Below are positions 8,247 through 19,313 of a stretch of DNA of 64,000 bases, one piece after another. A model generated the notes under the pieces. The model worked only from the letters and a program-made list of their open reading frames with translations, made no database searches and was not told where the DNA came from. Position numbers and translations under genes: made by a program. Origin of the DNA: Actinomycetota bacterium. Lineage in GTDB: Bacteria > Actinomycetota > AC-67. The stretch is taken from the NCBI GenBank assembly GCA_036397635.1, contig DASWIP010000031.1, forward strand, positions 6,536 to 70,535, written 5' to 3'. Numbering within the stretch: position 1 is the stretch's first letter; the number at the start of each line of letters is the position of its first letter.

Positions 8247-10241
8247 ATGAACGCGATGATCAGAAGGATGGCGCTCGCTGCGAGCATCGTGCTGGCGGCG
8301 GCGGGATCGGTCGGTGCCTCGCACGCATCGGTGACACCGGTTGCACCGCGACCGGCGACGGTCCTAGACGCCGGCCTCGTTGCGATGCTGGACGCCGCGG
8401 AGCCGGGCGAGTCCCTGATCGTCTTCGTCCATGGCGAGGGGCGGGAGGACGCGTCGCGCGCGGCGCGAGCGGTGGGCCTCGACGTGCTGGAGCGCTGGGA
8501 GAAGGTCGGCGTCGCGGTCGCCTCTGGCTCTGCGGAGGCCATCCGACGGCTCTCTGCGGATCCCTCGGTGACCTACATCGAGCCAGACCGCCCGGTCGAG
8601 ATGCTCCTGGACACCGCACACATCGCGACGCGCGCGCAGGAGGCTCGCGAGCCCGCCGCAGGGCTGCTCGAGCCAGAGGGGTTCCCCTACGACGGCACCG
8701 GGGTGACGATCGCCATCCCCGACTCGGGGATCGACGCGACGCACCCGATGTTCGTGCAGGACGGAACCTCGAAGGTGGTGCGCAACCTGCGCCATGCCTG
8801 CCTCGAATCGGCTCCGTGCAGCGCCTGGGTCGAGGCCGACGACAACGACGCTGCCGACGGGCACGGCACCGCCGTGGCAAGCGTCGCAGCGGGCTACGAG
8901 CGCGTCAGCGCCAGGGGCAGGACCGTCCGCGGGGTTGCCCCCGGGGCGAAGCTCGTAGGGCTAGGGAGCGAGGGCGTCTATCTCTATGGCCACCTCAGCG
9001 GCTTCAACTGGGTCCTTGAGAATCACGCGGATCCCTGCGGTGATGGAACGTGTCCTCCGATCCGCGTGATGAGCTACTCGGGAGGGTCGGCGGATTCGGT
9101 GACGGCCGCGCAGCTGGTAGAGGCGTTGGTGTCTGAGGGGATCACCGTGACCGTGGCGGTGGGCAACGACGGCGGCGACGGGTCACAGGACAACGTCTCT
9201 CCGCTGGTGCATACCACGACGCCCGGCGTCATCGGCGTCGCGAACTACGAAGACAACGACATCGGCAGCAGGGACTACGGTCTGGACCCCAGCAGCGGGC
9301 GAGGACTCAGGACCGATCCAAGCAGTTATCCCGACCTCGCCGCGCCGGGGACTTGGATCACCCTGGCATGCAGGGCCACGCAACGGAGGTGCCAGCCGGG
9401 CCTCGAAGCGGATCCCGATTACTCGATCCTCACCGGGACGTCCCTCTCTGCTCCGTACGTCGCAGGCGTCGTTGCCTTGCTCGTCGAGGCGAACCCTGCG
9501 CTAACGCCCGCGGACATCGAGGACCTGCTGGAGGACACCGCCTATCAGTTCGGAACGGCCGACTATGTCGCTGATCCGACCAACCCGAACCATACGACCT
9601 CGTTCGACCGGGGTCACGGCCTCGTCGATGTCACGGCGGCCCTGGCGGCCGCGCTGGAGCGACCGGCACCGTACTGGAGCTGCGGTACCGGTGACATCGT
9701 CGATCCGGAGGGCGACGCGACGGCCCTCGCCGAGGAGACGGGCTTGTCGCCGCCGTCGGCCGACGGCCTGGACATCACGCGCGCGTGGGTGAGCACCGAC
9801 CCAACAACCGGCGCGCTCACGTTCGCCGTGCGGCTGGCCGATCTCGGGGAGCTTCCCCCGGCGGCTGCTGTGGGCGAGTACCTGCGCTTCTACTTCACCT
9901 ACGCTGGCGCGCCCTACGAGGTCCACATGCAGCGGCTGGGTGGCGCCGCCGAGGCGAGCGTCCGATTCCATCTGCAAACGGCGGGGAGCGCCATCGATCG
10001 AGTGATCGTCGCCGACGACCTCGCCGGCAGCTTCGACCATGTCGCAGACGTGGTTCGGGCAGTGGTTCCCGCCAGCGCGTTCAACGATTGGAACCCCGCC
10101 GTGCCGGTCGTCGTGGACGGCGACCTCCTGACCGGACTCCAGGTCACGTCCAACCGGCCGCACGGGAACCGTCCTGCAGGGCCGGCGTTCCTGATCGCCG
10201 ACACCGCCAAGGGCGCCTGTCCCCACATCGTCGGGTCCTAA
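8247..10241 (+). CDS. Subtilisin-like serine peptidase (S8) with inhibitor-I9-like propeptide
   Basis: AGGGGGAG SD before the ATG at 8247 and a signal peptide. The catalytic triad is visible: DSGID (Asp), HGTAVASVAAG (His) and GTSLSAPYVAGVVALL (Ser). Confidence 0.9.
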   Translation: MNAMIRRMALAASIVLAAAGSVGASHASVTPVAPRPATVLDAGLVAMLDAAEPGESLIVFVHGEGREDASRAARAVGLDVLERWEKVGVAVASGSAEAIRRLSADPSVTYIEPDRPVEMLLDTAHIATRAQEAREPAAGLLEPEGFPYDGTGVTIAIPDSGIDATHPMFVQDGTSKVVRNLRHACLESAPCSAWVEADDNDAADGHGTAVASVAAGYERVSARGRTVRGVAPGAKLVGLGSEGVYLYGHLSGFNWVLENHADPCGDGTCPPIRVMSYSGGSADSVTAAQLVEALVSEGITVTVAVGNDGGDGSQDNVSPLVHTTTPGVIGVANYEDNDIGSRDYGLDPSSGRGLRTDPSSYPDLAAPGTWITLACRATQRRCQPGLEADPDYSILTGTSLSAPYVAGVVALLVEANPALTPADIEDLLEDTAYQFGTADYVADPTNPNHTTSFDRGHGLVDVTAALAAALERPAPYWSCGTGDIVDPEGDATALAEETGLSPPSADGLDITRAWVSTDPTTGALTFAVRLADLGELPPAAAVGEYLRFYFTYAGAPYEVHMQRLGGAAEASVRFHLQTAGSAIDRVIVADDLAGSFDHVADVVRAVVPASAFNDWNPAVPVVVDGDLLTGLQVTSNRPHGNRPAGPAFLIADTAKGACPHIVGS

Positions 10242-10369: not shown

Positions 10370-11587
10370 TCAGACAAGCTGCGACAAGAAGGTTTGCGCG
10401 GGGACGATCACGGGGCGCGACTCCTTGAACGAGTCCGCCGAATTGTACGGTGCGTCCATGACGACCTGGAATGCGTGCGCGGCTCCGACCGCCCGCTGGA
10501 AGTAGGCCAGCGAGGGAGACAATCGCGGGCCAGAGCCCTGCTTCACCTCCACGAGGAACCACGGCGTTCGATCGCGCGCAACGATCAGATCCACTTCACG
10601 TTTCTGCTTGTCGCGCAGGTAATGCATGGAGAAGTCACCGAGGCCTGCGTCGGTCCAGAAATGACACGCCTTCAGGAGTGCGGCTGCGACCATGTTCTCA
10701 GCGCGCGCGCCGGGGTCGTCGATGGATGACCAATCCCAGAGGTAGTACTTCGGCGCCTTGCGCAAGGACCGAGCGACGTTGCGCGTCCAGGGGCGGACGC
10801 TGAACAGGACGTAGAGATGCTCCAATGCGGTGAGCCACCGGCGGATCGAGTCCTGAGAGGCGCCCACTTCCGTCGCCAGCGCCGCCGTTGGAGCCGTCCC
10901 ACCCACCCGGTCCGCCACAACGTTTACGAGGTGCTCGACCTGAGCGATGTCCTGCAATCGAGTGAGATCGCGGAGGTCCTCCCTGAGGAGGCGTTCCGAT
11001 CGCAGCCGCCGCCATCGCCGCGCGAACCGCTCCTCCGCCCTCGTGAGCGGCTCGGGGAACCCACCGAAGCGCGCTAGGGCTTCGAAGGAATCGCGATCGA
11101 GCTTCTTGGGGGGCAGGATGAGCGCGTCTGGGTGCGCATTCGGTCGAACAAGTTCGCTGACCGAGAACGGGTGCATGCGATGGGGAAGGAACCGGCCCAA
11201 CAAGCTGTCTCCGCCCCGGCGGAAGATGTCGAGCCGAGCGCTTCCGGTGACCAAGATGCCGGCTTGTTCTCCGTACGTGTCGAAGAGACCCTTGAGCGAG
11301 TTCTTCCACCGGGGCATCTTGTGGATCTCATCCAACACCAGGATCGGCCTCCGGCGCCTCGCGGTGTCTAGCTCGGCGGATCGTGCGACCTCACCTGCGC
11401 CGGCCGCGAACAACCGTCGGACCTCCGGTGCGTCGGCGTTGAAGTAGCGGATCCGACCCAGCGAGGCGGGTGCAGTGCGCGAGGTGCTTGTCTTGCCTAC
11501 CTGACGGGGTCCGGACAAGAACAGCATCTGGCGGTTCTCAGTGAAGTGCTCCTTGATGACAGAGTCGTAGCGCCTTGGCACGTACAT
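10370..11587 (-). CDS. AAA+ family ATPase (COG1373/DUF4143-type)
   Basis: Walker A GPRQVGKTS, Walker B ILVLDEIH, and a C-terminal DUF4143-like region. Confidence 0.85.
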   Translation of the reverse strand: MYVPRRYDSVIKEHFTENRQMLFLSGPRQVGKTSTSRTAPASLGRIRYFNADAPEVRRLFAAGAGEVARSAELDTARRRRPILVLDEIHKMPRWKNSLKGLFDTYGEQAGILVTGSARLDIFRRGGDSLLGRFLPHRMHPFSVSELVRPNAHPDALILPPKKLDRDSFEALARFGGFPEPLTRAEERFARRWRRLRSERLLREDLRDLTRLQDIAQVEHLVNVVADRVGGTAPTAALATEVGASQDSIRRWLTALEHLYVLFSVRPWTRNVARSLRKAPKYYLWDWSSIDDPGARAENMVAAALLKACHFWTDAGLGDFSMHYLRDKQKREVDLIVARDRTPWFLVEVKQGSGPRLSPSLAYFQRAVGAAHAFQVVMDAPYNSADSFKESRPVIVPAQTFLSQLV

Positions 11588-11591
11588 GAGG

Positions 11592-11655
11592 TGACTATAC
11601 CACGGTAGGCCGCGGAACGGTCATAACTATTCCGCGGTAGGCCGTGGAATAGTCA
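11592..11655. mobile_element. MITE-like 64 bp palindromic element with 7 bp direct repeats CATGAGG at both flanks
   Basis: TIRs TGACTATA (11592-11599) and AATAGTCA (11648-11655). Internal imperfect inverted repeats CCACGGTAGGCCGCGGAA / TTCCGCGGTAGGCCGTGG surround the 12 nt spacer cggtcataacta. CATGAGG occurs at 11585-11591 and again at 11656-11662. Confidence 0.4.
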
Positions 11656-12149
11656 CATGAGGATGACCCCGTAGACGCCGCCTCCTCAACGCTGCCGCCG
11701 TGCGCGGGCCGGCGCCAGGACATCTTTGGGAACCCTCGCCATCGCGGGGAGCGGGTGCCGGAGGTGATGCTCTTGCTCTCGGCCGCGCTGGAGTCTTGCC
11801 GACCTTTGGCCGACCCTTGTCGGCTCCTACGCGTCCCTGAGAACGTATCCAGCTTGACACGTCCATCGAGGAACACGGCATGCAGCTCGAGAGTGCATCC
11901 AAGCGCTGCGACGTACTTCTTGAGCGTCGAGAGGTACACATCCTCCACGCGTTCCAGCCGGGACACGTTGGCTTGGGCTACCCCGAGCACGCGGGCTACT
12001 TCCAACTGTGTGAGCTTCCGGGATCCGCGTAGCTCGGCGAGTGCGACCGCAACACGGGCCGCGCCTTTGTGCGCCTCAACGCGAGGGCGACGTCCGGGTT
12101 CTGCGTCGACCCGCGCGCGCAGCTGGTCAAAGTTTCGCCTGCCGCTCAC
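11595..12149 (-). CDS. XRE-family HTH protein (HigA-like antitoxin) with unusual extended C-terminal tail
   Basis: HTH LTQLEVARVLGVAQANVSRLE. The GTG start overlaps the upstream toxin-remnant stop (GTGA). The stop codon and last ~20 codons lie inside the MITE-like element. Confidence 0.65.
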   Translation of the reverse strand: MSGRRNFDQLRARVDAEPGRRPRVEAHKGAARVAVALAELRGSRKLTQLEVARVLGVAQANVSRLERVEDVYLSTLKKYVAALGCTLELHAVFLDGRVKLDTFSGTRRSRQGSAKGRQDSSAAESKSITSGTRSPRWRGFPKMSWRRPAHGGSVEEAASTGSSSCDYSTAYRGIVMTVPRPTVV

Positions 12150-12343
12150 GGGAGTAGTCCTTCCTGTCGGAGCTCTGAGAGGTACACGTCATACAGGTCG
12201 TCGGCGATCGGCACCATCCGCTCGTACCACTTGTTCCACCACCTGGTCTTGTCACCACCGATGAGCAGGATCGCGCTCCTCCGGGGATCGAATGCGAAGA
12301 GAACCCGGAGGTTCCCCGCCGGCGGGATCGTCGTTGATCCCTA
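12146..12343 (-). pseudogene. N-terminally truncated RelE/HigB-like toxin remnant (C-terminal ~60 codons only, no start codon)
   Basis: Hand translation gives ...LRVLFAFDPRRSAILLIGGDKTRWWNKWYERMVPIADDLYDVYLSELRQEGLLP*, stop-to-stop with no Met. It is coupled by GTGA to the XRE gene. Its upstream end abuts the S8-gene fragment. Confidence 0.45.
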
Positions 12344-12597
12344 CGACGCAACGGCTTACGGAACCTCGTTGTCTGCGCCATGCGTCGCCGGCGTGGTAGC
12401 CCTTCCTCGAGGCGAACCTCGCGCTAACACCGCCGGCGGCCTCGGAGCGGTGGCTCGATATTCACGCGCGCCTGGGTGAGCACCGACCCGGCCACCGGCG
12501 CGCTCACGTTCGCCGTGCGGCCGGCCGACTCGGGGAGCTTCCCCAATGGCTGCGGTGGGCGAGTATCTGCACTGCTACTTCTAAAAGGGCTCGATGC
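12325..12597 (+). pseudogene. Decayed partial duplicate of the S8 peptidase gene (two 3' blocks juxtaposed, internal ~270 bp deleted)
   Basis: DNA at 12339-12420 aligns at roughly 80% with 9418-9500 (GTSLSAPYVAGVVALLVEANPALTPA block). DNA at 12440-12597 aligns at roughly 88% with 9768-9897 (RAWVSTDPTTGALTFAVRLADLGELPP...EYLRFYF block). Track ORFs 12069..12479 and 12476..12742 carry the matching peptide fragments. Confidence 0.6.
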
Positions 12598-12650
12598 CGC
12601 TGGGCTAGCTCCCGTTCGGACGAGTTGTGGGGGGGTGATCCGGCCCGGGT

Positions 12651-12686
12651 GCGATGGGGACCGGGCATCAGCCCGGTCCCCATCGC
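12651..12686. terminator. Perfect 16 bp stem / 4 nt loop hairpin (GCGATGGGGACCGGGC atca GCCCGGTCCCCATCGC), likely bidirectional terminator
   Basis: The inverted repeat was read directly. It lies 35 nt downstream of the stop of the minus-strand collagen-like gene and downstream of the S8 fragment. Confidence 0.5.
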
Positions 12687-12720
12687 GATCTTCGATGAGA
12701 TGCCTGTCGGAGGTGGTCGG

Positions 12721-13992
12721 TCAGCCCGTCACGGTTCCGTAGAACAGACACTCGACTCCAACGGGGGGAGCCCCTGGTATCGCGCGCGTGCCGACCACGC
12801 CGGAGACCACATGTCCGGCATCATCGGTGTACAGGAACGTCACCTGTGTCGGTGCCAGATCCGAGTCGAATTCGTCGGTCCCCGTCAGGGTGTCTCCGAA
12901 GGTGTCGAGCTGCGCGGCGCGCTCGACCACCAGCGTGTCGGCCCCGCGCGCGTGCCAGACGATCCTTGCGCCCGGCTCGCTGGAGCGAGCGGACAGGATC
13001 GCTACTGTTGGGGTGCTGGGGTCGAAGAATCCATAGTCGCAGCGACCGGTCAGCTCGAGTCCGGACGCCACGATGAGCGATAGCTCATCCGTCCCAGTCT
13101 TGCTGATCCGGAACGTGCTGGCGCCGTCCCCCGGTGCGCCTGCGGGTCCCTGCGGGCCTGCGGGTCCCTCCGGGCCGCTGAGACCCTGCGGTCCCGCGGG
13201 TCCAGCGAGGCCCGTCTCACCTTGCGGGCCCGCCGGTCCCGGCTCGCCTTGGGGACCGACTGGACCGGGTTCGCCCTGCTGATTCCAGCTCAACAGGCGT
13301 TCGTCCTTCTTGCATGCCGAGGGTCCATCGACCACGCGAAGCGAGCCGCCTGCGTTGCCGTAACAGGCGTAGATCGTGCCGTCCTCAGCGGGGATCTGGG
13401 CGAACGCGAACGTGGCGGTCAGCACCCCGAGGACGCTGAGCGCAGCGACGATGGGGATCGATCGGGCCTTGCGGATGATGCTGGTTCCCGTGGACATGTT
13501 CTTCCTCCTATCTGGGGCTTCCGCCCCTAACGGACCGGGATCGGTCCCGGCCACGAATTTCCTGCGGATGCGGGTTGACGACGCGAGGAGCTGCTCGAAA
13601 TCGGGGCCTTGGAAGACCAACGCACGCAGCGGCGTGCGTGCGACCACGGTCGCCGTCCTCGGCCGATTGGCCAGCAGCGATAGCTCCCCGACCATGGATC
13701 CGGCTCCGACGATCGCGACCAGATCGCCGGCTACGCGGACCTCGGCTTTGCCCTCGATCAGGAGGCAGCAGCCGCGCGCACCATGCCCCTCGACCGTGAG
13801 GGGCTCGCCGGCCTCGACCGTGATCTGGGAGCTGAGCCCGGCGATGATTCGCAGCTCGGCTGCCGTGCTGTCGGCGAACAACGGCATCTCACGCAGCGCG
13901 GCCATGATGCGCCGGCGGTGAACGACCATCCGAGCCATCTCCGCTCCTTTCGGGATCTCGCGCGATGCGACCCGAGAGGATGCTCGCGGCAA
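12721..13992 (-). CDS. In-frame fusion ORF: N-terminal cyclic-nucleotide-binding (cNMP/CAP-like) domain, TM/signal segment, collagen-like GXY repeats and an unknown C-terminal domain. An internal strong-SD start at 13497 would give the collagen-like secreted protein alone (12721..13497).
   Basis: cNMP domain [16 protein letters not shown]...GELSLL...[16 protein letters not shown]. The ATG at 13497-13495 is preceded by ATAGGAGGAAGAAC. It is followed by the hydrophobic [20 protein letters not shown] and then 17 GXY triplets ([49 protein letters not shown]). No stop separates the two parts. Confidence 0.6.
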
Positions 13993-14040
13993 GACGTAAA
14001 GGAGCTGTAAACACCGCCGCCGGCGCGGCTCTGTGACGGG

Positions 14041-17000
14041 CTAGGAGCCGTCCAGCGGCTCGCCCAAGGCGACCATGATCTGAACGAGTGCTTCGCGCGC
14101 GCCGACCTCGGCGGTTCGGCGGACCGCCTCATCGAACGCCGCCTCTCCCACGGCGTCGCGCACGAGCAGACTTGCGCCGTCGAAGGCCGCTCGTTCGGAC
14201 GGCGGCAAGACGCCTTCAGCACGTTCGAGCAGCGCGCGCGCAGCCCCAAGCGCCACCGCGGCCGCCTGCGGAGTGTCAGATGCTGCCACGACGCCGAGTG
14301 CGGTCAAGGAGCGAGCGATCTCGAATGTATCCTCGGTCTGCAGCAGGATCTCTACCGAACGCACCGCATGCGCGCGCGCCTCGACCGCATCGCCGGCCGT
14401 CATCTCCAGCGCGGTCAGGGAGCGCAGCAGCGTCCCATGCAAGCCCTCGTCGATCCCGCGCGCGGCGATCTCCAGCGCCTCGGCATAGCGCGTCCGGGCC
14501 TCGTCGAGGTCGCCACAAGCGAGGGCCACATCGCCCATGCCGATCGCACTGGCGAGCCCACCGCGAACGTAGCCGGCCACTCGCGACGCTTCCCGCGCTT
14601 CTGCGAGATGCGTCGACGCGGCGCCCAGGTCGCCGGCGGCGATGCGGCACGCCGACAGGACGAGAAGCGGCTCGATCGCGCCGAAAGTATCGCCGCTCTC
14701 ACGCATCATTCGCAGGGCGCGCTCAAGCGTGACGGACGCATTCACATATCCGCCCGTCTGATACAGCGCTGCCCCGATGTTGACGACGGCATTCCCGACG
14801 TGGCGCATCGCTCCTGCCGCGTAGGCGAGCTCGAGGGACGCCTCGTACCGCTCGAGCGCCTTCGACATGTGACCGCGGCGTTGATCCACCGAGCCGAGAT
14901 TGCCGAGAAGGGTCATCCGGTAGGTCACGTCACCGAGGGCCTCTGACATCTCGAGCGCTTCCGTCCATCGAGCGTCCGCGCCGTCGGTCTCGCCCTGCCG
15001 CCAGGCGATCACACCCAGGTTCGCCAATGCCCCGACCGCCGCGACACTATCCCCGCGCGCGCGCGCTATGGCGAGGGAACGCTCGATGAGGGCGGTCGCT
15101 CCACCCAAGTCGCCCTGCTCGGCGAGCGCCGGCGCGAGATTATGGATCGCCATGTGCTCTGTCTGCTCGTCGCCGATCCGCTGGGCGATCTCGAGCGCAG
15201 CGCGGAACGTAGTGATGCTTCCGGCGTAGTCGCCTTGATTCTTCATCGCGTTCCCGAGCGTGATCAGCGTGCTCATCTCGAGGATCTCGTCGCGCTCGGC
15301 ACGAGCGATGTCGAGCGCGTCCTCCGCGTACCCTTGGGCGCGCGGAAACTCTCCTTGATCGTTGGCTGTCGAAGCGAGAGATGTGAGGACACGCCCACGC
15401 AGGGGTGCCGTGGTCGCTTGATCCAGCGCGCGCTCGAGGTACTTCCGCCTGTCGCGCACGTAGCCTCGCCGAGCGAAGTACGGTGAGATCGCGACCGCCA
15501 GTCGCGCGGCCTCGTCGGCTCGCCGGTTGCCCGCGGTCGCCCGCTCGAGCGCTGTGGTGATGTTGTCGTGCTCCTCGGCCAGCGATGCAACCGTAACGGC
15601 GTCGCCCATCCAGGCCTTCTGCGTGGTGCTCTCGGCCACGGTCAGCACCCACCCGAGGTGAGCGTCGGCGATGCGGTCTGCCTCACCGGAGGCGCGCAAC
15701 TGCTCGGCCGCGTAATCGCGGATCACGACCAGCATCTCGTACCTGCTGGCCGACGTGGTATGTCGCATCGACAGCAGGGACTTGTCCACCAGACCGCTGA
15801 GAAGATCCAGCACCTCTGCTGCGTCGATCCCATCGCCGGCGCATACGAGGGTCGCGCTGGCGGTCGTGCATCCGCCGTGGAAGACCGACAGGCGGCGGAA
15901 GAGACAACGTTCCTCCTCGTTCAGCAGGTCGAAGGACCATGCGAGGGTACCGCGCATGGTCTGATGGCGCGGATCGCCGGTGCGGCTCCCGACCGTCAAG
16001 AGGCGCAGCGTGTCGGCAAGGTTCGCAACGAGGTCGGGAAGGCCTGCCGCACGCGTCCGCGCGGCGACCAGCTCGATCGCCAGCGGCATGCCATCGAGGC
16101 GCCGGCAGATCTCGACGATCGCACCGACGTGCGCGGCGGCGTCCAGGTGTGCGTTGGCTGCGCGCGCGCGCTCCAGGAACAGCGCAGCAGCGGGATGCTC
16201 CAGCGCCTCCTCCAGAGACCGCGTGTTTGCCGGCGGCACTGGGAGTGGTGCGATGACCGTGACGGTCTCTCCCGGCACTCGCAATGATTCCCGCGAGGTC
16301 GTGAGGATCCGCATCCTTGGGCACGCGGCGAGGATGGTTGCGCAGGCTGATGCGACCTCTTCGAGAAGATGCTCGCAGTTGTCGATCAACAACAGCGCCT
16401 GCCGGCCGGCGAGTTCGTCGAGCAGCGTATCTTGCAGTGCTCGTCCGGCTTGCTCGCGCACGCCGACCGCGGAGGCGATACGGCGGATCACCAATGAGGG
16501 GTCATCGACTGCGGCGAGTTCGACGAGCCATACGCCGTCGGGATATCGGGCGACCATCCGGTGCGCGATCTCGATGGCCAGGCGCGTCTTGCCCGAGCCA
16601 CCGGGTCCCGTGAGGGTCACCAGCCGCGCCTGGTCGAGCAGGTCGCCGACCTCTGTCTGCTCGGCCTCGCGCCCGAGGAAGCGATTCGCCGGGAAGGGCA
16701 GGTTGTGCGGGGCCGCCGTGTCGAGGATCCCGCCCACGTCGAGCGTCGCGGACTGTTTCAGGATCGCTTCGAACAGGGATGAAACCTCGGCTGAAGGGTC
16801 GATGCCGAGCGATTCGGCAAGGTGCTCTCGCAGTTCCTGAAACGCCTCGAGCGCGTCGGACTGTCGTCCCGCTCGGTACAGCGCGAGCATGCGTCTCGCC
16901 CACACTGTTTCGCGTGTCGGGAACCTGGCGCATTCGACGGCAAGCTCTTCGGCCACCCTCCGATGAGCACCCAGCGCGAGATCCACATCCGCCTTCTCTT

Positions 17001-17571
17001 CGACCGCGATCAGCCGCTGCTCGTTGAGACGAGCCGCGCCCGAGCGTGCGAAGGTGAGATCGATGCCGGTGAACGCATCCCCTCGCCACAAGCCCAGTGC
17101 CTCGGCGTACAGCGCGCTCGCATGACGGTGCGCGCCACGCGTCTCCCCTGCGCGCGCCTCGGCCAGGAGGGCGACGAATCGGCCGCTATCCACCTCGTTG
17201 CGCATGTCGACATCCAAGCGGTAGCCGCGCGGGACCGTCTCGACAACTCGTCGCCCACACATCTCTTCGAACGTCCGACGCAGCTTCGACACGTGCACGC
17301 GCAGGGCCGTTCCGGCGGTATCCGGTGGCGAGCCGTCCCACAGGTCCTCGATCAGCGCATCCACGGGGATCGGCCGCCCTTCGGCGAGCAACAGTCGCGC
17401 AAGCAACGCCTGCTCCTTCGTCGCCGAGATGGGAAGAGTCTTGCCGTCGTGGGTGACGGTCAGGGGGCCCAATATTTCGAAGAACACGCACAGAGGGTAC
17501 CGTCGGTGACGCCACGCGTGAACGCCGCCCACTCTCTGGTGCCGGGGGCCTCGATCAGCCAGGCTACCCAT
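14041..17571 (-). CDS. AfsR/SARP-family transcriptional regulator (OmpR-type winged helix + BTAD + NB-ARC ATPase + TPR repeats)
   Basis: FEILGPLTV SARP start motif, Walker A GPGGSGKTRLA, and a C-terminal ~500 aa TPR-like region. The true start may be the in-frame GTG near 17480 rather than 17571. Confidence 0.85.
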   Translation of the reverse strand: MGSLADRGPRHQRVGGVHAWRHRRYPLCVFFEILGPLTVTHDGKTLPISATKEQALLARLLLAEGRPIPVDALIEDLWDGSPPDTAGTALRVHVSKLRRTFEEMCGRRVVETVPRGYRLDVDMRNEVDSGRFVALLAEARAGETRGAHRHASALYAEALGLWRGDAFTGIDLTFARSGAARLNEQRLIAVEEKADVDLALGAHRRVAEELAVECARFPTRETVWARRMLALYRAGRQSDALEAFQELREHLAESLGIDPSAEVSSLFEAILKQSATLDVGGILDTAAPHNLPFPANRFLGREAEQTEVGDLLDQARLVTLTGPGGSGKTRLAIEIAHRMVARYPDGVWLVELAAVDDPSLVIRRIASAVGVREQAGRALQDTLLDELAGRQALLLIDNCEHLLEEVASACATILAACPRMRILTTSRESLRVPGETVTVIAPLPVPPANTRSLEEALEHPAAALFLERARAANAHLDAAAHVGAIVEICRRLDGMPLAIELVAARTRAAGLPDLVANLADTLRLLTVGSRTGDPRHQTMRGTLAWSFDLLNEEERCLFRRLSVFHGGCTTASATLVCAGDGIDAAEVLDLLSGLVDKSLLSMRHTTSASRYEMLVVIRDYAAEQLRASGEADRIADAHLGWVLTVAESTTQKAWMGDAVTVASLAEEHDNITTALERATAGNRRADEAARLAVAISPYFARRGYVRDRRKYLERALDQATTAPLRGRVLTSLASTANDQGEFPRAQGYAEDALDIARAERDEILEMSTLITLGNAMKNQGDYAGSITTFRAALEIAQRIGDEQTEHMAIHNLAPALAEQGDLGGATALIERSLAIARARGDSVAAVGALANLGVIAWRQGETDGADARWTEALEMSEALGDVTYRMTLLGNLGSVDQRRGHMSKALERYEASLELAYAAGAMRHVGNAVVNIGAALYQTGGYVNASVTLERALRMMRESGDTFGAIEPLLVLSACRIAAGDLGAASTHLAEAREASRVAGYVRGGLASAIGMGDVALACGDLDEARTRYAEALEIAARGIDEGLHGTLLRSLTALEMTAGDAVEARAHAVRSVEILLQTEDTFEIARSLTALGVVAASDTPQAAAVALGAARALLERAEGVLPPSERAAFDGASLLVRDAVGEAAFDEAVRRTAEVGAREALVQIMVALGEPLDGS

Positions 17572-17678
17572 ATTGATGGACCGCGCGGCCGGAACTCATC
17601 GGGTTCCCCTCACGGACGCGCAGGATCCACGGTGACCACGCAGGGGGTGACTTGGTCGGTCTCTGGTTCGGGTTGTCG

Positions 17679-18500
17679 TCAGGGCCTGGATGCCTTGACG
17701 ATCACCGCGGTCGCGACGTGGCTCTGTCGTTCCTGTGGGATCGTCCGGCGCATCGCCTCGATGACCTCGGCGGTGAAGAGCGGGTACATCGACGCCTCAG
17801 CGACGCCGAAGGGGCGATGGCCCCCTACCCACACGTTCGTGAACCCCGCTCGCTCGAGTTTGTCGGCGAAGACACGCTCCGCCAGGGCGCCCGACACTCA
17901 GCCGGCCCAAGCGCTGGGATCGGCTGCGACCTCGATGGGGAGCTCTGTATCGAGCGTGAGGTCCCCCAAGCAGATGCGGCCGCCGGGGCGCAGGACACGG
18001 TGGATCTCAGCCATCGCGCGGCTCTTGCGCGCCGAGAGGTTCAGCACACCGTTCGAGATCACCACATCGACCGACGCGTCGGGCAGCGGGATGTCTTCCA
18101 TCTCGCCCTGAACGAACCGGGTCCAACCGGCGACGCCCGCCGCGGTCGCGTGCGTGCCCGCTCGCTCGCACATCTCCTCAAGGATGTCCAGACCGATCGC
18201 GCTGCCGGTTGACCCGACGCGCCTGGCAGCGAGGATCGTGTCGATGCCCCCGCCGGATCCCACGTCGAGCACTGTCTCGCCGGGCTGGAGGAACGCGTAG
18301 CGGATCGGGTTGGCAACCCCGAGGGCCCAGCGCACCGCGTGGGCAGGGAGCTCAGCGAGCTCGGCGTCGCTGTAGAGCTTGCGCGCGACCGCCTCGCCAC
18401 CGCCGGACTCGATCGAGCGGTACGACTGCGCGACGTTGTCTTTGATCTCCTGTTGGAACATCAGGTCGCGGGCCATGACTCTCCTGTCGTCAAAGCTCAT
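17679..18500 (-). pseudogene. ArsM/UbiE-like class I SAM methyltransferase interrupted by a single in-frame TGA (17898-17900) at the position of a conserved Cys. Either a pseudogene or a recoded (Sec/readthrough) gene.
   Basis: SAM motif [11 protein letters not shown], then ...DPSAWAG-TGA-VSGALAERVFADKLERAGF...HVATAVIVKASRP (an ArsM-like C-terminus) in the same frame. Track ORFs 17898..18500 and 17679..17897 are one frame split by the TGA. Confidence 0.6.
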
Positions 18501-18726
18501 CCAGGAAGCGCTCCAAGTGGTCGCGGACGTGCTGCGGGATCACGTCGGACGTGCCGGTCGCTAGGAAGGACCGAACCTCCCTGGCGAACTCCAATTCTCC
18601 ACAGCAGGTCCGGCAGAACGCGAGGTGCTTCTCGACGCTCTCTTGCTCCTCGGGGGAGATCGCGTTGTCCAGGTACTCCCAGAGCCGCTTCACTGCCTCG
18701 GAGCATGGGATCAGCTGCTCGGTCAT
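18490..18726 (-). CDS. rsrA: Zinc-associated anti-sigma factor (ZAS, RsrA-like)
   Basis: HLAFCRTCC (HxxxCxxC) motif and ~78 aa length. Overlaps the downstream methyltransferase start by 11 nt and the upstream sigma gene stop. Confidence 0.8.
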   Translation of the reverse strand: MTEQLIPCSEAVKRLWEYLDNAISPEEQESVEKHLAFCRTCCGELEFAREVRSFLATGTSDVIPQHVRDHLERFLDEL

Positions 18727-19313
18727 GGTGTTTCCTCTCTAGCGAGGAGCCCCGCGTCGCCTGCGTAGCTCCACATCTCGATCTCGAAGCGCTTGCGCGC
18801 GCGATGCAGGCGCGCGAGCACGGTTCCCAGAGGGACGTCGAGCATCTGGGCGATCTCTTTGGTCGACCATCCCTCCATGTAGTGCAGGACGAGCGGTGCT
18901 CGGTAGATGTCCTGGATCCGCATGAGCACCGCGTGGACATCCTCTTTCCCGAAGGCGCTGAGGAAGTCGTGGTGGAGCGTGTCGGAATAGGGGAAGGGAT
19001 CCTCGATCGCGATGGTTCGGTAGAGCGAGAAGTCGTCGATCTCTTCGACGCTGACCTCTTCCACCGCGCGCGATCGCTTCCGCAGTGTGTCGTGGAACAC
19101 GTTCACCAGGATCCGCTTGAGCCATGGTCCAACCGAGGCGTCGGTCTTCAGGGTCCCGAACGACCGGTAGGCCCGCAGCAGCGTCTCCTGCACCAGATCC
19201 TCCGCGCTCACCTCATCCAGCCGCCGCGCCAGTGAGTACAGGCCCGCCAGCTCGGGAAGCGTCAGCAACCGGAACGCCTCCTTCGTGCGGTCCTGCACCA
19301 CCTGTTCGTTCAT
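18723..19313 (-). CDS. ECF RNA polymerase sigma factor (SigR/SigE-like)
   Basis: Sigma-70 region 2 (LVQETLLRAYRSF) and region 4 (WSTKEIAQMLDVPLGTVLARLHRARKRF). ATG at 19313 chosen; the track ORF begins at a GTG at 19337. Confidence 0.85.
   Translation of the reverse strand: MNEQVVQDRTKEAFRLLTLPELAGLYSLARRLDEVSAEDLVQETLLRAYRSFGTLKTDASVGPWLKRILVNVFHDTLRKRSRAVEEVSVEEIDDFSLYRTIAIEDPFPYSDTLHHDFLSAFGKEDVHAVLMRIQDIYRAPLVLHYMEGWSTKEIAQMLDVPLGTVLARLHRARKRFEIEMWSYAGDAGLLAREETP

Follow-up and report, generated by a model that had tools for sequence, protein, structure and literature searches.

In a 64,000-nt stretch of an Actinomycetota genome (GenBank assembly GCA_036397635.1, contig DASWIP010000031.1, positions 6,536 to 70,535; hereinafter the window), a single open reading frame (ORF) on the minus strand encodes a cyclic nucleotide-binding (CNB) domain that continues in frame into a secreted collagen-like protein. 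With a probability of about 0.75, we interpret this ORF as the result of an in-frame fusion, specific to one lineage, between two adjacent co-oriented genes that used to be separate; we take the fusion to be young rather than an established type of sensor. An origin by stop loss is favoured because the closest relative has the two genes adjacent and separate, the more distant relatives are stand-alone proteins, and the internal methionine (Met) of the ORF is the start used throughout the collagen-like family.

Overall architecture of the fused ORF

The maximal open frame, 12721..13992 (-), corresponds to 423 aa when counted from a TTG at 13992. The true start is almost certainly the ATG at 13938-13936, giving a product of 405 aa, because AAAGGAG lies 5 nt ahead of it, the closest relative of the cyclic-nucleotide (cNMP) half, P0156, aligns without gaps from Met1, and this start was chosen by the gene callers in six assemblies. 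A Pfam scan of the fused ORF returned cNMP_binding with 55.1 bits (cut-off 27.5) and Collagen with 33.9 bits (cut-off 27.2) in one frame, and there is no in-frame stop codon between the CNB domain and the internal Met at 13497. In both halves, the G+C content of the third codon position (GC3) exceeds that of the second (GC2) in the shared frame; the ORF is therefore coding sequence and not a chance open frame in high-GC DNA. The ORF and Pfam results confirm the original prediction, made from the sequence of the window, that a single frame runs from a cNMP-binding domain into a collagen-like protein; the prediction did not state that this frame is on the minus strand. The coordinates of all features are given in Table 1. 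The NCBI product name of the corresponding entry, HEX9711618.1, is 'cyclic nucleotide-binding domain-containing protein'. As a warning for annotation, such a cNMP-based name hides the secreted collagen-like protein.

Table 1. Features of the fused ORF and its immediate surroundings (positions in the window)
Feature	Coordinates	Strand	Evidence and remarks
Fused ORF, 405 aa + stop (stop codon 12721-12723)	12721..13938	-	Sequence; identical product called in six assemblies; NCBI HEX9711618.1
Shine-Dalgarno AAAGGAG of the upstream (cNMP) start	13944..13950	-	5-nt spacer to ATG 13938; start backed by gapless P0156 alignment
Complete stand-alone-type CNB domain, residues 1-131	13546..13938	-	PF00027 55.1 bits; PDB E 1.9e-19; AF2; Foldseek; P0156
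Junction, residues 132-147, stop-free in the fused frame	13498..13545	-	GC3, codon use, pLDDT, end of P0156 homology
Internal Shine-Dalgarno core GGAGG	13504..13508	-	6-nt spacer to internal ATG 13497-13495
Predicted signal peptide or signal-anchor, residues 148-180	13399..13497	-	Hydrophobicity, flank charges, homologue starts
Conserved two-Cys N-terminal module, residues 181-221	13276..13398	-	IPxxDGTIxaCY..GG.LRvvD...C...E..LSWNqqG; alignments, AF2
Collagen-like region, 17 uninterrupted Gly-X-Y triplets, residues 222-272	13123..13275	-	PF01391 33.9 bits vs 27.2
C-terminal beta-rich domain, 133 aa, two Cys, residues 273-405	12724..13122	-	Small family; AF2
AfsR/SARP-type regulator (Trans_reg_C, BTAD, NB-ARC/AAA, TPR)	14041..17571	-	Immediately upstream of fused ORF; same architecture adjoins the two-gene relative
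Perfect 16-bp inverted repeat, 4-nt loop, no T tract	12651..12686	.	35 nt 3' of ORF stop, between convergent genes

The junction is present in independent assemblies

Eight contigs encode exactly this 405-aa product, and six of them were retrieved (ENA ERZ27256807, ERZ27256803 and ERZ27256991; Logan SRR8537877; JGI 3300030606 and 3300030620). HEX9711618.1, from an Actinomycetota metagenome-assembled genome, is the same 405-aa protein. The retrieved contigs are 99.95-100% identical to the window, and the few population single-nucleotide polymorphisms (SNPs) all lie outside 12721-13992. The DNA of the fused ORF is identical across three data sources, at least six samples and different assemblers; the junction is therefore real, and the stop codon is genuinely absent in the sampled population. 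The original prediction had called for the junction to be re-sequenced, and the independent contigs in effect answer this call, with no stop in any assembly.

It is therefore highly improbable that two normal genes look joined only because an assembly or sequencing error removed the stop between them or altered the frame. One base change or indel within 13498-13545 would in principle bring a stop back, as both other frames have a TAG there, but the same ORF DNA recurs throughout the contigs just described, which do record true SNPs elsewhere.

Two separate genes in the closest relative

The fused architecture was sought in 5.8 billion clusters and by an exhaustive HMMER search over 1.84 billion representatives. 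Among the best 120 matches of the 5.8-billion-cluster search, only the query, P0001, carries both Pfam domains (PF00027 and PF01391), and the query is also the only full-length match of the exhaustive HMMER search. Five of the seven long cNMP-type matches were scanned, and all five are multi-cNMP proteins without collagen. A literature search for cNMP-binding combined with collagen-like proteins in bacteria found no papers. The first impression that the architecture is unfamiliar thus holds, with the window protein as its only carrier in the databases searched.

The closest relatives of the two halves, P0156 and P0160, are encoded on one 5625-bp contig (Logan SRR14005100), and each is the sole member of its own cluster. 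Specifically, the cNMP gene (653-1135) and the collagen-like gene (1194-1964) lie 58 nt apart on the same strand in different frames, followed by a gene for a 1146-aa Trans_reg_C/BTAD/AAA/TPR regulator. Genes, order and orientation are the same as in the window, and the same type of regulator is adjacent. However, in SRR14005100 the genes are separate, the cNMP protein ends in a 26-aa tail followed by a stop of its own, and the regulator is downstream and convergent, whereas the regulator in the window is upstream and co-oriented. Because the same kind of regulator adjoins both loci, the locus is syntenic, with two genes in the relative. The lost ancestral stop between two genes, which the original prediction had put forward as an alternative, is thereby backed as the origin of the ORF.

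In all more distant relatives, the two halves were likewise found apart. The 23 cNMP relatives of 130-232 aa are all stand-alone. Sixty-six loci from GTDB genomes and JGI metagenomes, 60 of them with close relatives of the cNMP half or the collagen half, include none that matches both. No Gly-X-Y ORF was found within ~5 kb of 26 cNMP relatives, and no cNMP-collagen pair in the neighbourhoods of P0171, P0023, P0002, P0175, P0251 and P0121, where the neighbours are unrelated. Given the two-gene relative and the stand-alone state of all more distant relatives, parsimony on these sequences identifies 'separate' as the ancestral state and 'fused' as the derived one.

The cNMP half is a complete CNB domain

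The first part of the ORF comprises N-terminal helices, a beta-barrel, a phosphate-binding cassette and alphaB/alphaC helices. The phosphate-binding cassette (Gly-Glu ... Arg-Thr/Ser-Ala) is intact, and its key residues are invariant among relatives. A PDB sequence search retrieved the CNB domains of protein kinase A regulatory subunits (PKA-R) with an E value of 1.9e-19, and the alignment extends through 'STRIRRKF'. The AlphaFold2 (AF2) model of the cNMP half has a mean predicted local distance difference test (pLDDT) score of 84.6, places the alphaB and alphaC helices at residues 111-120 and 122-130, and has the eight-stranded beta-barrel with flanking alphaA and alphaB/alphaC helices. A Foldseek search with this model gave template-modelling (TM) scores of 0.73-0.78 to the CNB domains of PKA-R, MloK1 and HCN. 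By sequence and predicted structure, the cNMP half is thus a CNB domain with predicted cAMP/cGMP binding. The original prediction of a cNMP-binding domain stands, although its length had been put at ~165 aa and this part measures 147 aa from ATG 13938.

No helix-turn-helix (HTH) family was found after the CNB domain in the Pfam scan of the fused ORF; a disordered linker and a signal peptide follow instead. The protein is therefore not a CRP/FNR regulator.

The GC3 of the cNMP half is 0.8-1.0. P0156 (160 aa, cNMP only) is 54% identical over residues 1-134 without a gap, and the cNMP half is in fact conserved better than the collagen half (54% gapless versus 39-44% with gaps).

In size, fold and phosphate-binding cassette, the cNMP half is like the stand-alone CNB proteins (P0156, P0171 and the 130-158-aa actinobacterial 'CRP-like cAMP-binding proteins'), and like other stand-alone forms it has no DNA-binding HTH. 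It differs from them in lacking its own stop codon and running on into a signal peptide and collagen-like protein. Little is known about what such stand-alone cNMP-binding proteins do. Among solved folds, the PKA regulatory-subunit CNB domains and the CNB domain of MloK1 come nearest. The mycobacterial acetyltransferase Pat also consists of an N-terminal CNB domain and a second module, and the CNB domain of the window matches the CNB region of Pat locally. However, the Pat fusion is old, widespread and cytoplasmic with an allosteric interface, whereas the window fusion is a singleton with an exported structural partner and a disordered linker.

At 720-1735 of locus L073, the gene for P0171 (148 aa), which ranks second among the cNMP relatives with 50% identity, is followed by one for a small secreted non-collagen protein of 132 aa with the signal peptide MNRVLLTLALASCFGVAFA. 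Stand-alone cNMP genes of the P0171 subfamily may tend to sit upstream of genes for secreted proteins.

The collagen half belongs to a large family of secreted proteins

The C-terminal 258 residues fall into a large family whose members are secreted collagen-like proteins encoded on their own. All homologues of this half begin at the Met equivalent to the internal Met, and a signal peptide and a two-Cys module before the repeats are common to them. Nine relatives were checked at the DNA level, and each has an in-frame stop shortly upstream of that Met. The predicted signal of the window protein aligns with the N-termini of all homologues. It consists of an n-region of charge +3, a 20-residue hydrophobic h/c-region and the putative cleavage site AFA|QI. 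Residues 160-180 are the sole hydrophobic segment of the 405-aa product (Kyte-Doolittle average, KD19 = 2.19; the only one > 1.6), with flank charges of +4 on the inside and -2 on the outside.

The two-Cys module, in which C, G, R, C, E and W are invariant in homologues, is predicted by AF2 with a pLDDT of 91-95 and contains three short strands; no Pfam family covers it. A ~40-residue two-Cys module with the consensus IPxxDGxIxaCY..G.LRvID....C...E..LSWNqxG, directly before the Gly-X-Y repeats, is common to many stand-alone bacterial collagen-like proteins from several phyla (including P0002-P0120 and P0160), and it could be a triple-helix nucleation or trimerisation module. Stand-alone relatives that carry the same N-terminal module number in the thousands, and the view in the original prediction that bacterial collagen-like proteins are rare is not supported. 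Its description of this half as a signal or transmembrane segment, 17 Gly-X-Y triplets and a C-terminal domain of ~140 aa is correct for the first two elements, while the C-terminal domain measures 133 aa.

Relatives of the C-terminal domain are limited to P0160, P0023 and, in part, P0251, and a word-index search with this domain alone gave no matches. The monomeric AF2 model predicts an all-beta domain, with a pLDDT of only 45-58.

The closest relative of the collagen half, P0160 (256 aa, with the C-terminal domain included), is 39-44% identical over residues 155-382 in a gapped alignment. The direct family (P0160, P0023 and P0098 from Solirubrobacter) is alike in signal peptide, two-Cys module, uninterrupted Gly-X-Y repeats and a variable C-terminal domain, and differs from the window protein in that no other member has an N-terminal cytoplasmic extension. 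Scl1/Scl2, BclA and Lcl are looser relatives, and the repeats of the window protein match the Scl and Lcl models locally. Because the NCBIfam models Scl, Lcl and SclB score only 30-35 bits against cut-offs of 325-500, on the repeats only, and the window protein contains no LPXTG sorting signal, it is not an LPXTG-anchored Scl1/Scl2 or Lcl adhesin.

The junction and the internal start

The fused frame is the only one that passes through the junction, as the other two stop inside it (TAG at 13529-13527 and TAG at 13510-13508). Homology to P0156 stops at residue 134, leaving 13 further codons to the internal Met. The cNMP relatives have Pro/Gly/Ala-rich tails of 14-26 residues past the homologous part, and then a stop. 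GC3 in the junction is 0.60, versus 0.8-1.0 on both sides, and the junction contains the rare codons TTA (1% of Leu codons in window genes), CCA and AGG AGG; the AGG AGG codons are the internal Shine-Dalgarno site itself. The AF2 pLDDT is below 50 from residue 133, and residues 133-147 are predicted to be disordered. Because of the low GC3, the rare codons and the predicted disorder, this 13-16-codon segment looks like a former tail or intergenic DNA.

The sequence ahead of the internal ATG (13497-13495) is ATAGGAGGAAGAAC and contains GGAGG at 13508-13504. Thus the strong internal ribosome-binding site that had been noticed is indeed there, 6 nt before the ATG. GGAGG followed by 4-9 nt also precedes several other gene starts in the window.

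Two further candidates at the junction were rejected. Hairpins in the junction (GGACCG/CGGTCC and GGGGC-GGAA-GCCCC) were considered as an intergenic RNA structure, but z is -1.1 and 25 of 200 shuffles fold equally well. As for a hidden frameshift near the 3' end of the cNMP half, neither alternative frame fits the C-helix of the homologues better; in the alignments with PKA-R and P0156, the current frame is native to about residue 134. A sigma-70 promoter scan of 12400-14200 found none, a scan that is uninformative for Actinomycetota, and an Rfam scan of the whole window matched no family.

Proposed origin and products of the fusion

We propose that the ancestral pair comprised a stand-alone cNMP-binding protein of 140-160 aa and a secreted collagen-like protein of ~257 aa. 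The upstream gene has lost its stop, and by chance the short tail and leader left behind keep the frame and contain no stop codon. The two halves are still intact, and within the longer ORF the downstream gene retains its native Shine-Dalgarno site together with its start codon and its signal peptide. The stop may have been lost by a single substitution (e.g. TAA or TGA to TTA), by a 1-nt indel that took the frame past the TAG lying within the Shine-Dalgarno site, or by a deletion of ~100 nt. The distance from the end of the domain to the ATG is 39 nt in the window versus ~139 nt in the SRR14005100 relative. From base composition, we estimate that a 13-codon stretch is stop-free in ~75% of cases and in frame in 1/3, jointly ~1/4. 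At such odds, any loss of the stop is likely to end in a fusion, even without selection.

Two nested products, as the original prediction had put forward, are possible, because both starts have good Shine-Dalgarno sites, the fused allele is reproducible and the cNMP half is intact. Translation from ATG 13938 would yield the 405-aa chimera, in which the internal signal probably inserts as a type II anchor in an N-in/C-out orientation. This topology is predicted because there is a single hydrophobic segment, the flanking charges follow the positive-inside rule (+4/-2) and an AXA site is present. The cNMP domain would then be cytoplasmic, with the Cys module, the collagen stalk and the C-terminal domain outside. 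Cleavage by signal peptidase at AFA|QI probably still takes place; it would set free a mature collagen-like protein identical to that from the internal start, while a cNMP stub would stay tethered to the membrane. In that case, the novelty would be a CNB stub tethered to the membrane, one-for-one with the exported protein. Translation from ATG 13497 would yield the ordinary secreted precursor. One may speculate that the very rare TTA in the linker slows read-through.

Alternative interpretations

Most likely, the fusion is a neutral or mildly tolerated change and not a designed sensor. Three points weigh against this interpretation. The single two-gene relative found is distant in sequence (54% and about 40% identity). 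In all samples seen, the fused allele is fixed, as would also be expected of a selected functional fusion. Finally, the conserved adjacency suggests a joint function of both proteins, in which case the fusion would be more than an accident. A rival interpretation is that the ORF encodes a selected, functional single-pass transmembrane protein that physically links a cAMP/cGMP sensor in the cytoplasm to a collagen-like trimer outside the cell. Such a protein might control the display or release of a surface fibre in response to the nucleotide, or signal from outside in, with the internal start supplying extra unfused subunits. The intact, in-frame halves, the allele fixed in all assemblies, the complete cNMP domain and the feasible topology are all consistent with it, and the retention of the gene pair next to a SARP-type regulator in a distant relative points to a functional link. 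Nevertheless, we regard this interpretation as improbable: the architecture is a singleton among the billions of clusters and representatives searched, the rare codons, low GC3 and disorder of the junction make it look unselected, the AXA site would split the parts after export, and chance would keep the junction open and in frame after stop loss in about a quarter of cases.

A bolder form of the proposal, to which we give marginally less credence still, holds that the ORF is a working transmembrane protein tying a cytoplasmic cyclic-nucleotide sensor to an extracellular collagen-like fibre, and that the conserved pair reveals an undescribed link between signalling and the cell surface in uncultured Actinomycetota. 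If so, the fusion would be a 'Rosetta stone' for a physical interaction of cNMP-binding and collagen-like proteins at the membrane.

At the other extreme, the cNMP part could be a dead remnant or an untranslated leader, the internal start alone being used and the long ORF being an annotation artefact of the missing stop. We consider this more doubtful than a selected fusion, although the internal start is the native start of the family and has a strong Shine-Dalgarno site, the junction is non-coding in character, and a decayed peptidase fragment nearby shows that genes decay in this neighbourhood. The cNMP half, however, has its own Shine-Dalgarno site and ATG and a coding-type GC3 of 0.8-1.0; it shows no gaps, stops or frameshifts against P0156 over 134 residues at 54% identity; and its ligand-binding motif is intact and its fold confidently predicted. 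Because its sequence is undecayed and better conserved than the collagen half, a dying remnant is unlikely. The original prediction had named, as grounds for giving up a fusion, homologues that occur as two separate genes together with decay of the 5' part; the separate genes are found in a relative, but the 5' part is better conserved than the 3' part.

A young fusion of two neighbouring genes thus remains the preferred interpretation. The domain combination is unique, yet it is a singleton in one population, and the type of event, a gene fusion with a retained internal start, is known. As an event it is ordinary evolution, and a clean natural case in which a missing stop and a retained internal ribosome-binding site possibly give two nested products. 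Together with the adjacency in the distant relative, the fusion suggests, from two loci only, a functional link between the stand-alone cNMP-binding protein and the collagen-like surface protein. This conserved pairing beside an AfsR/SARP regulator, resting on only these two loci, is the mildly interesting residue of the analysis.

Genomic neighbourhood

The inverted repeat past the 3' end of the fused ORF probably serves as a bidirectional terminator that has no T tract; a consensus terminator scan left this hairpin unreported. Just past the same end, in convergent orientation, lies a decayed fragment of a subtilisin-like S8 peptidase gene (12290-12583, +). The fragment is paralogous to the 3' part of an intact S8 gene (7758/8247-10241, +), with 88.5% identity over 122 bp (12462-12581 versus 9775-9896) and the protein motifs GTSLSAPCVAGVVAL and STDPATGALTFAVRPAD. 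The intact gene is separated from this fragment by genes for an AAA_14/DUF4143 ATPase (10370-11587, -) and an HTH_37/XRE protein (11595-12149, -). The arrangement suggests that the end of the peptidase gene was split off or copied by an insertion or duplication, a sign of recent rearrangement and decay next to the fusion. Within the S8 coding region, ARAGORN reported a 101-nt 'tRNA-Ala(cgc)' (8284-8384, +), which is most likely a false positive because it is over-long and inside a gene.

Upstream of the AfsR-type regulator, 17600-18940 (-) encodes an extracytoplasmic function (ECF) sigma factor (Sigma70_r2/r4), a zf-HC2 anti-sigma factor, an S-adenosylmethionine (SAM) methyltransferase and a 72-aa ORF, as seen through positions 1-1260 of locus L001. 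This group is co-oriented with the regulator and the fused ORF, and all of them may form one regulatory neighbourhood.

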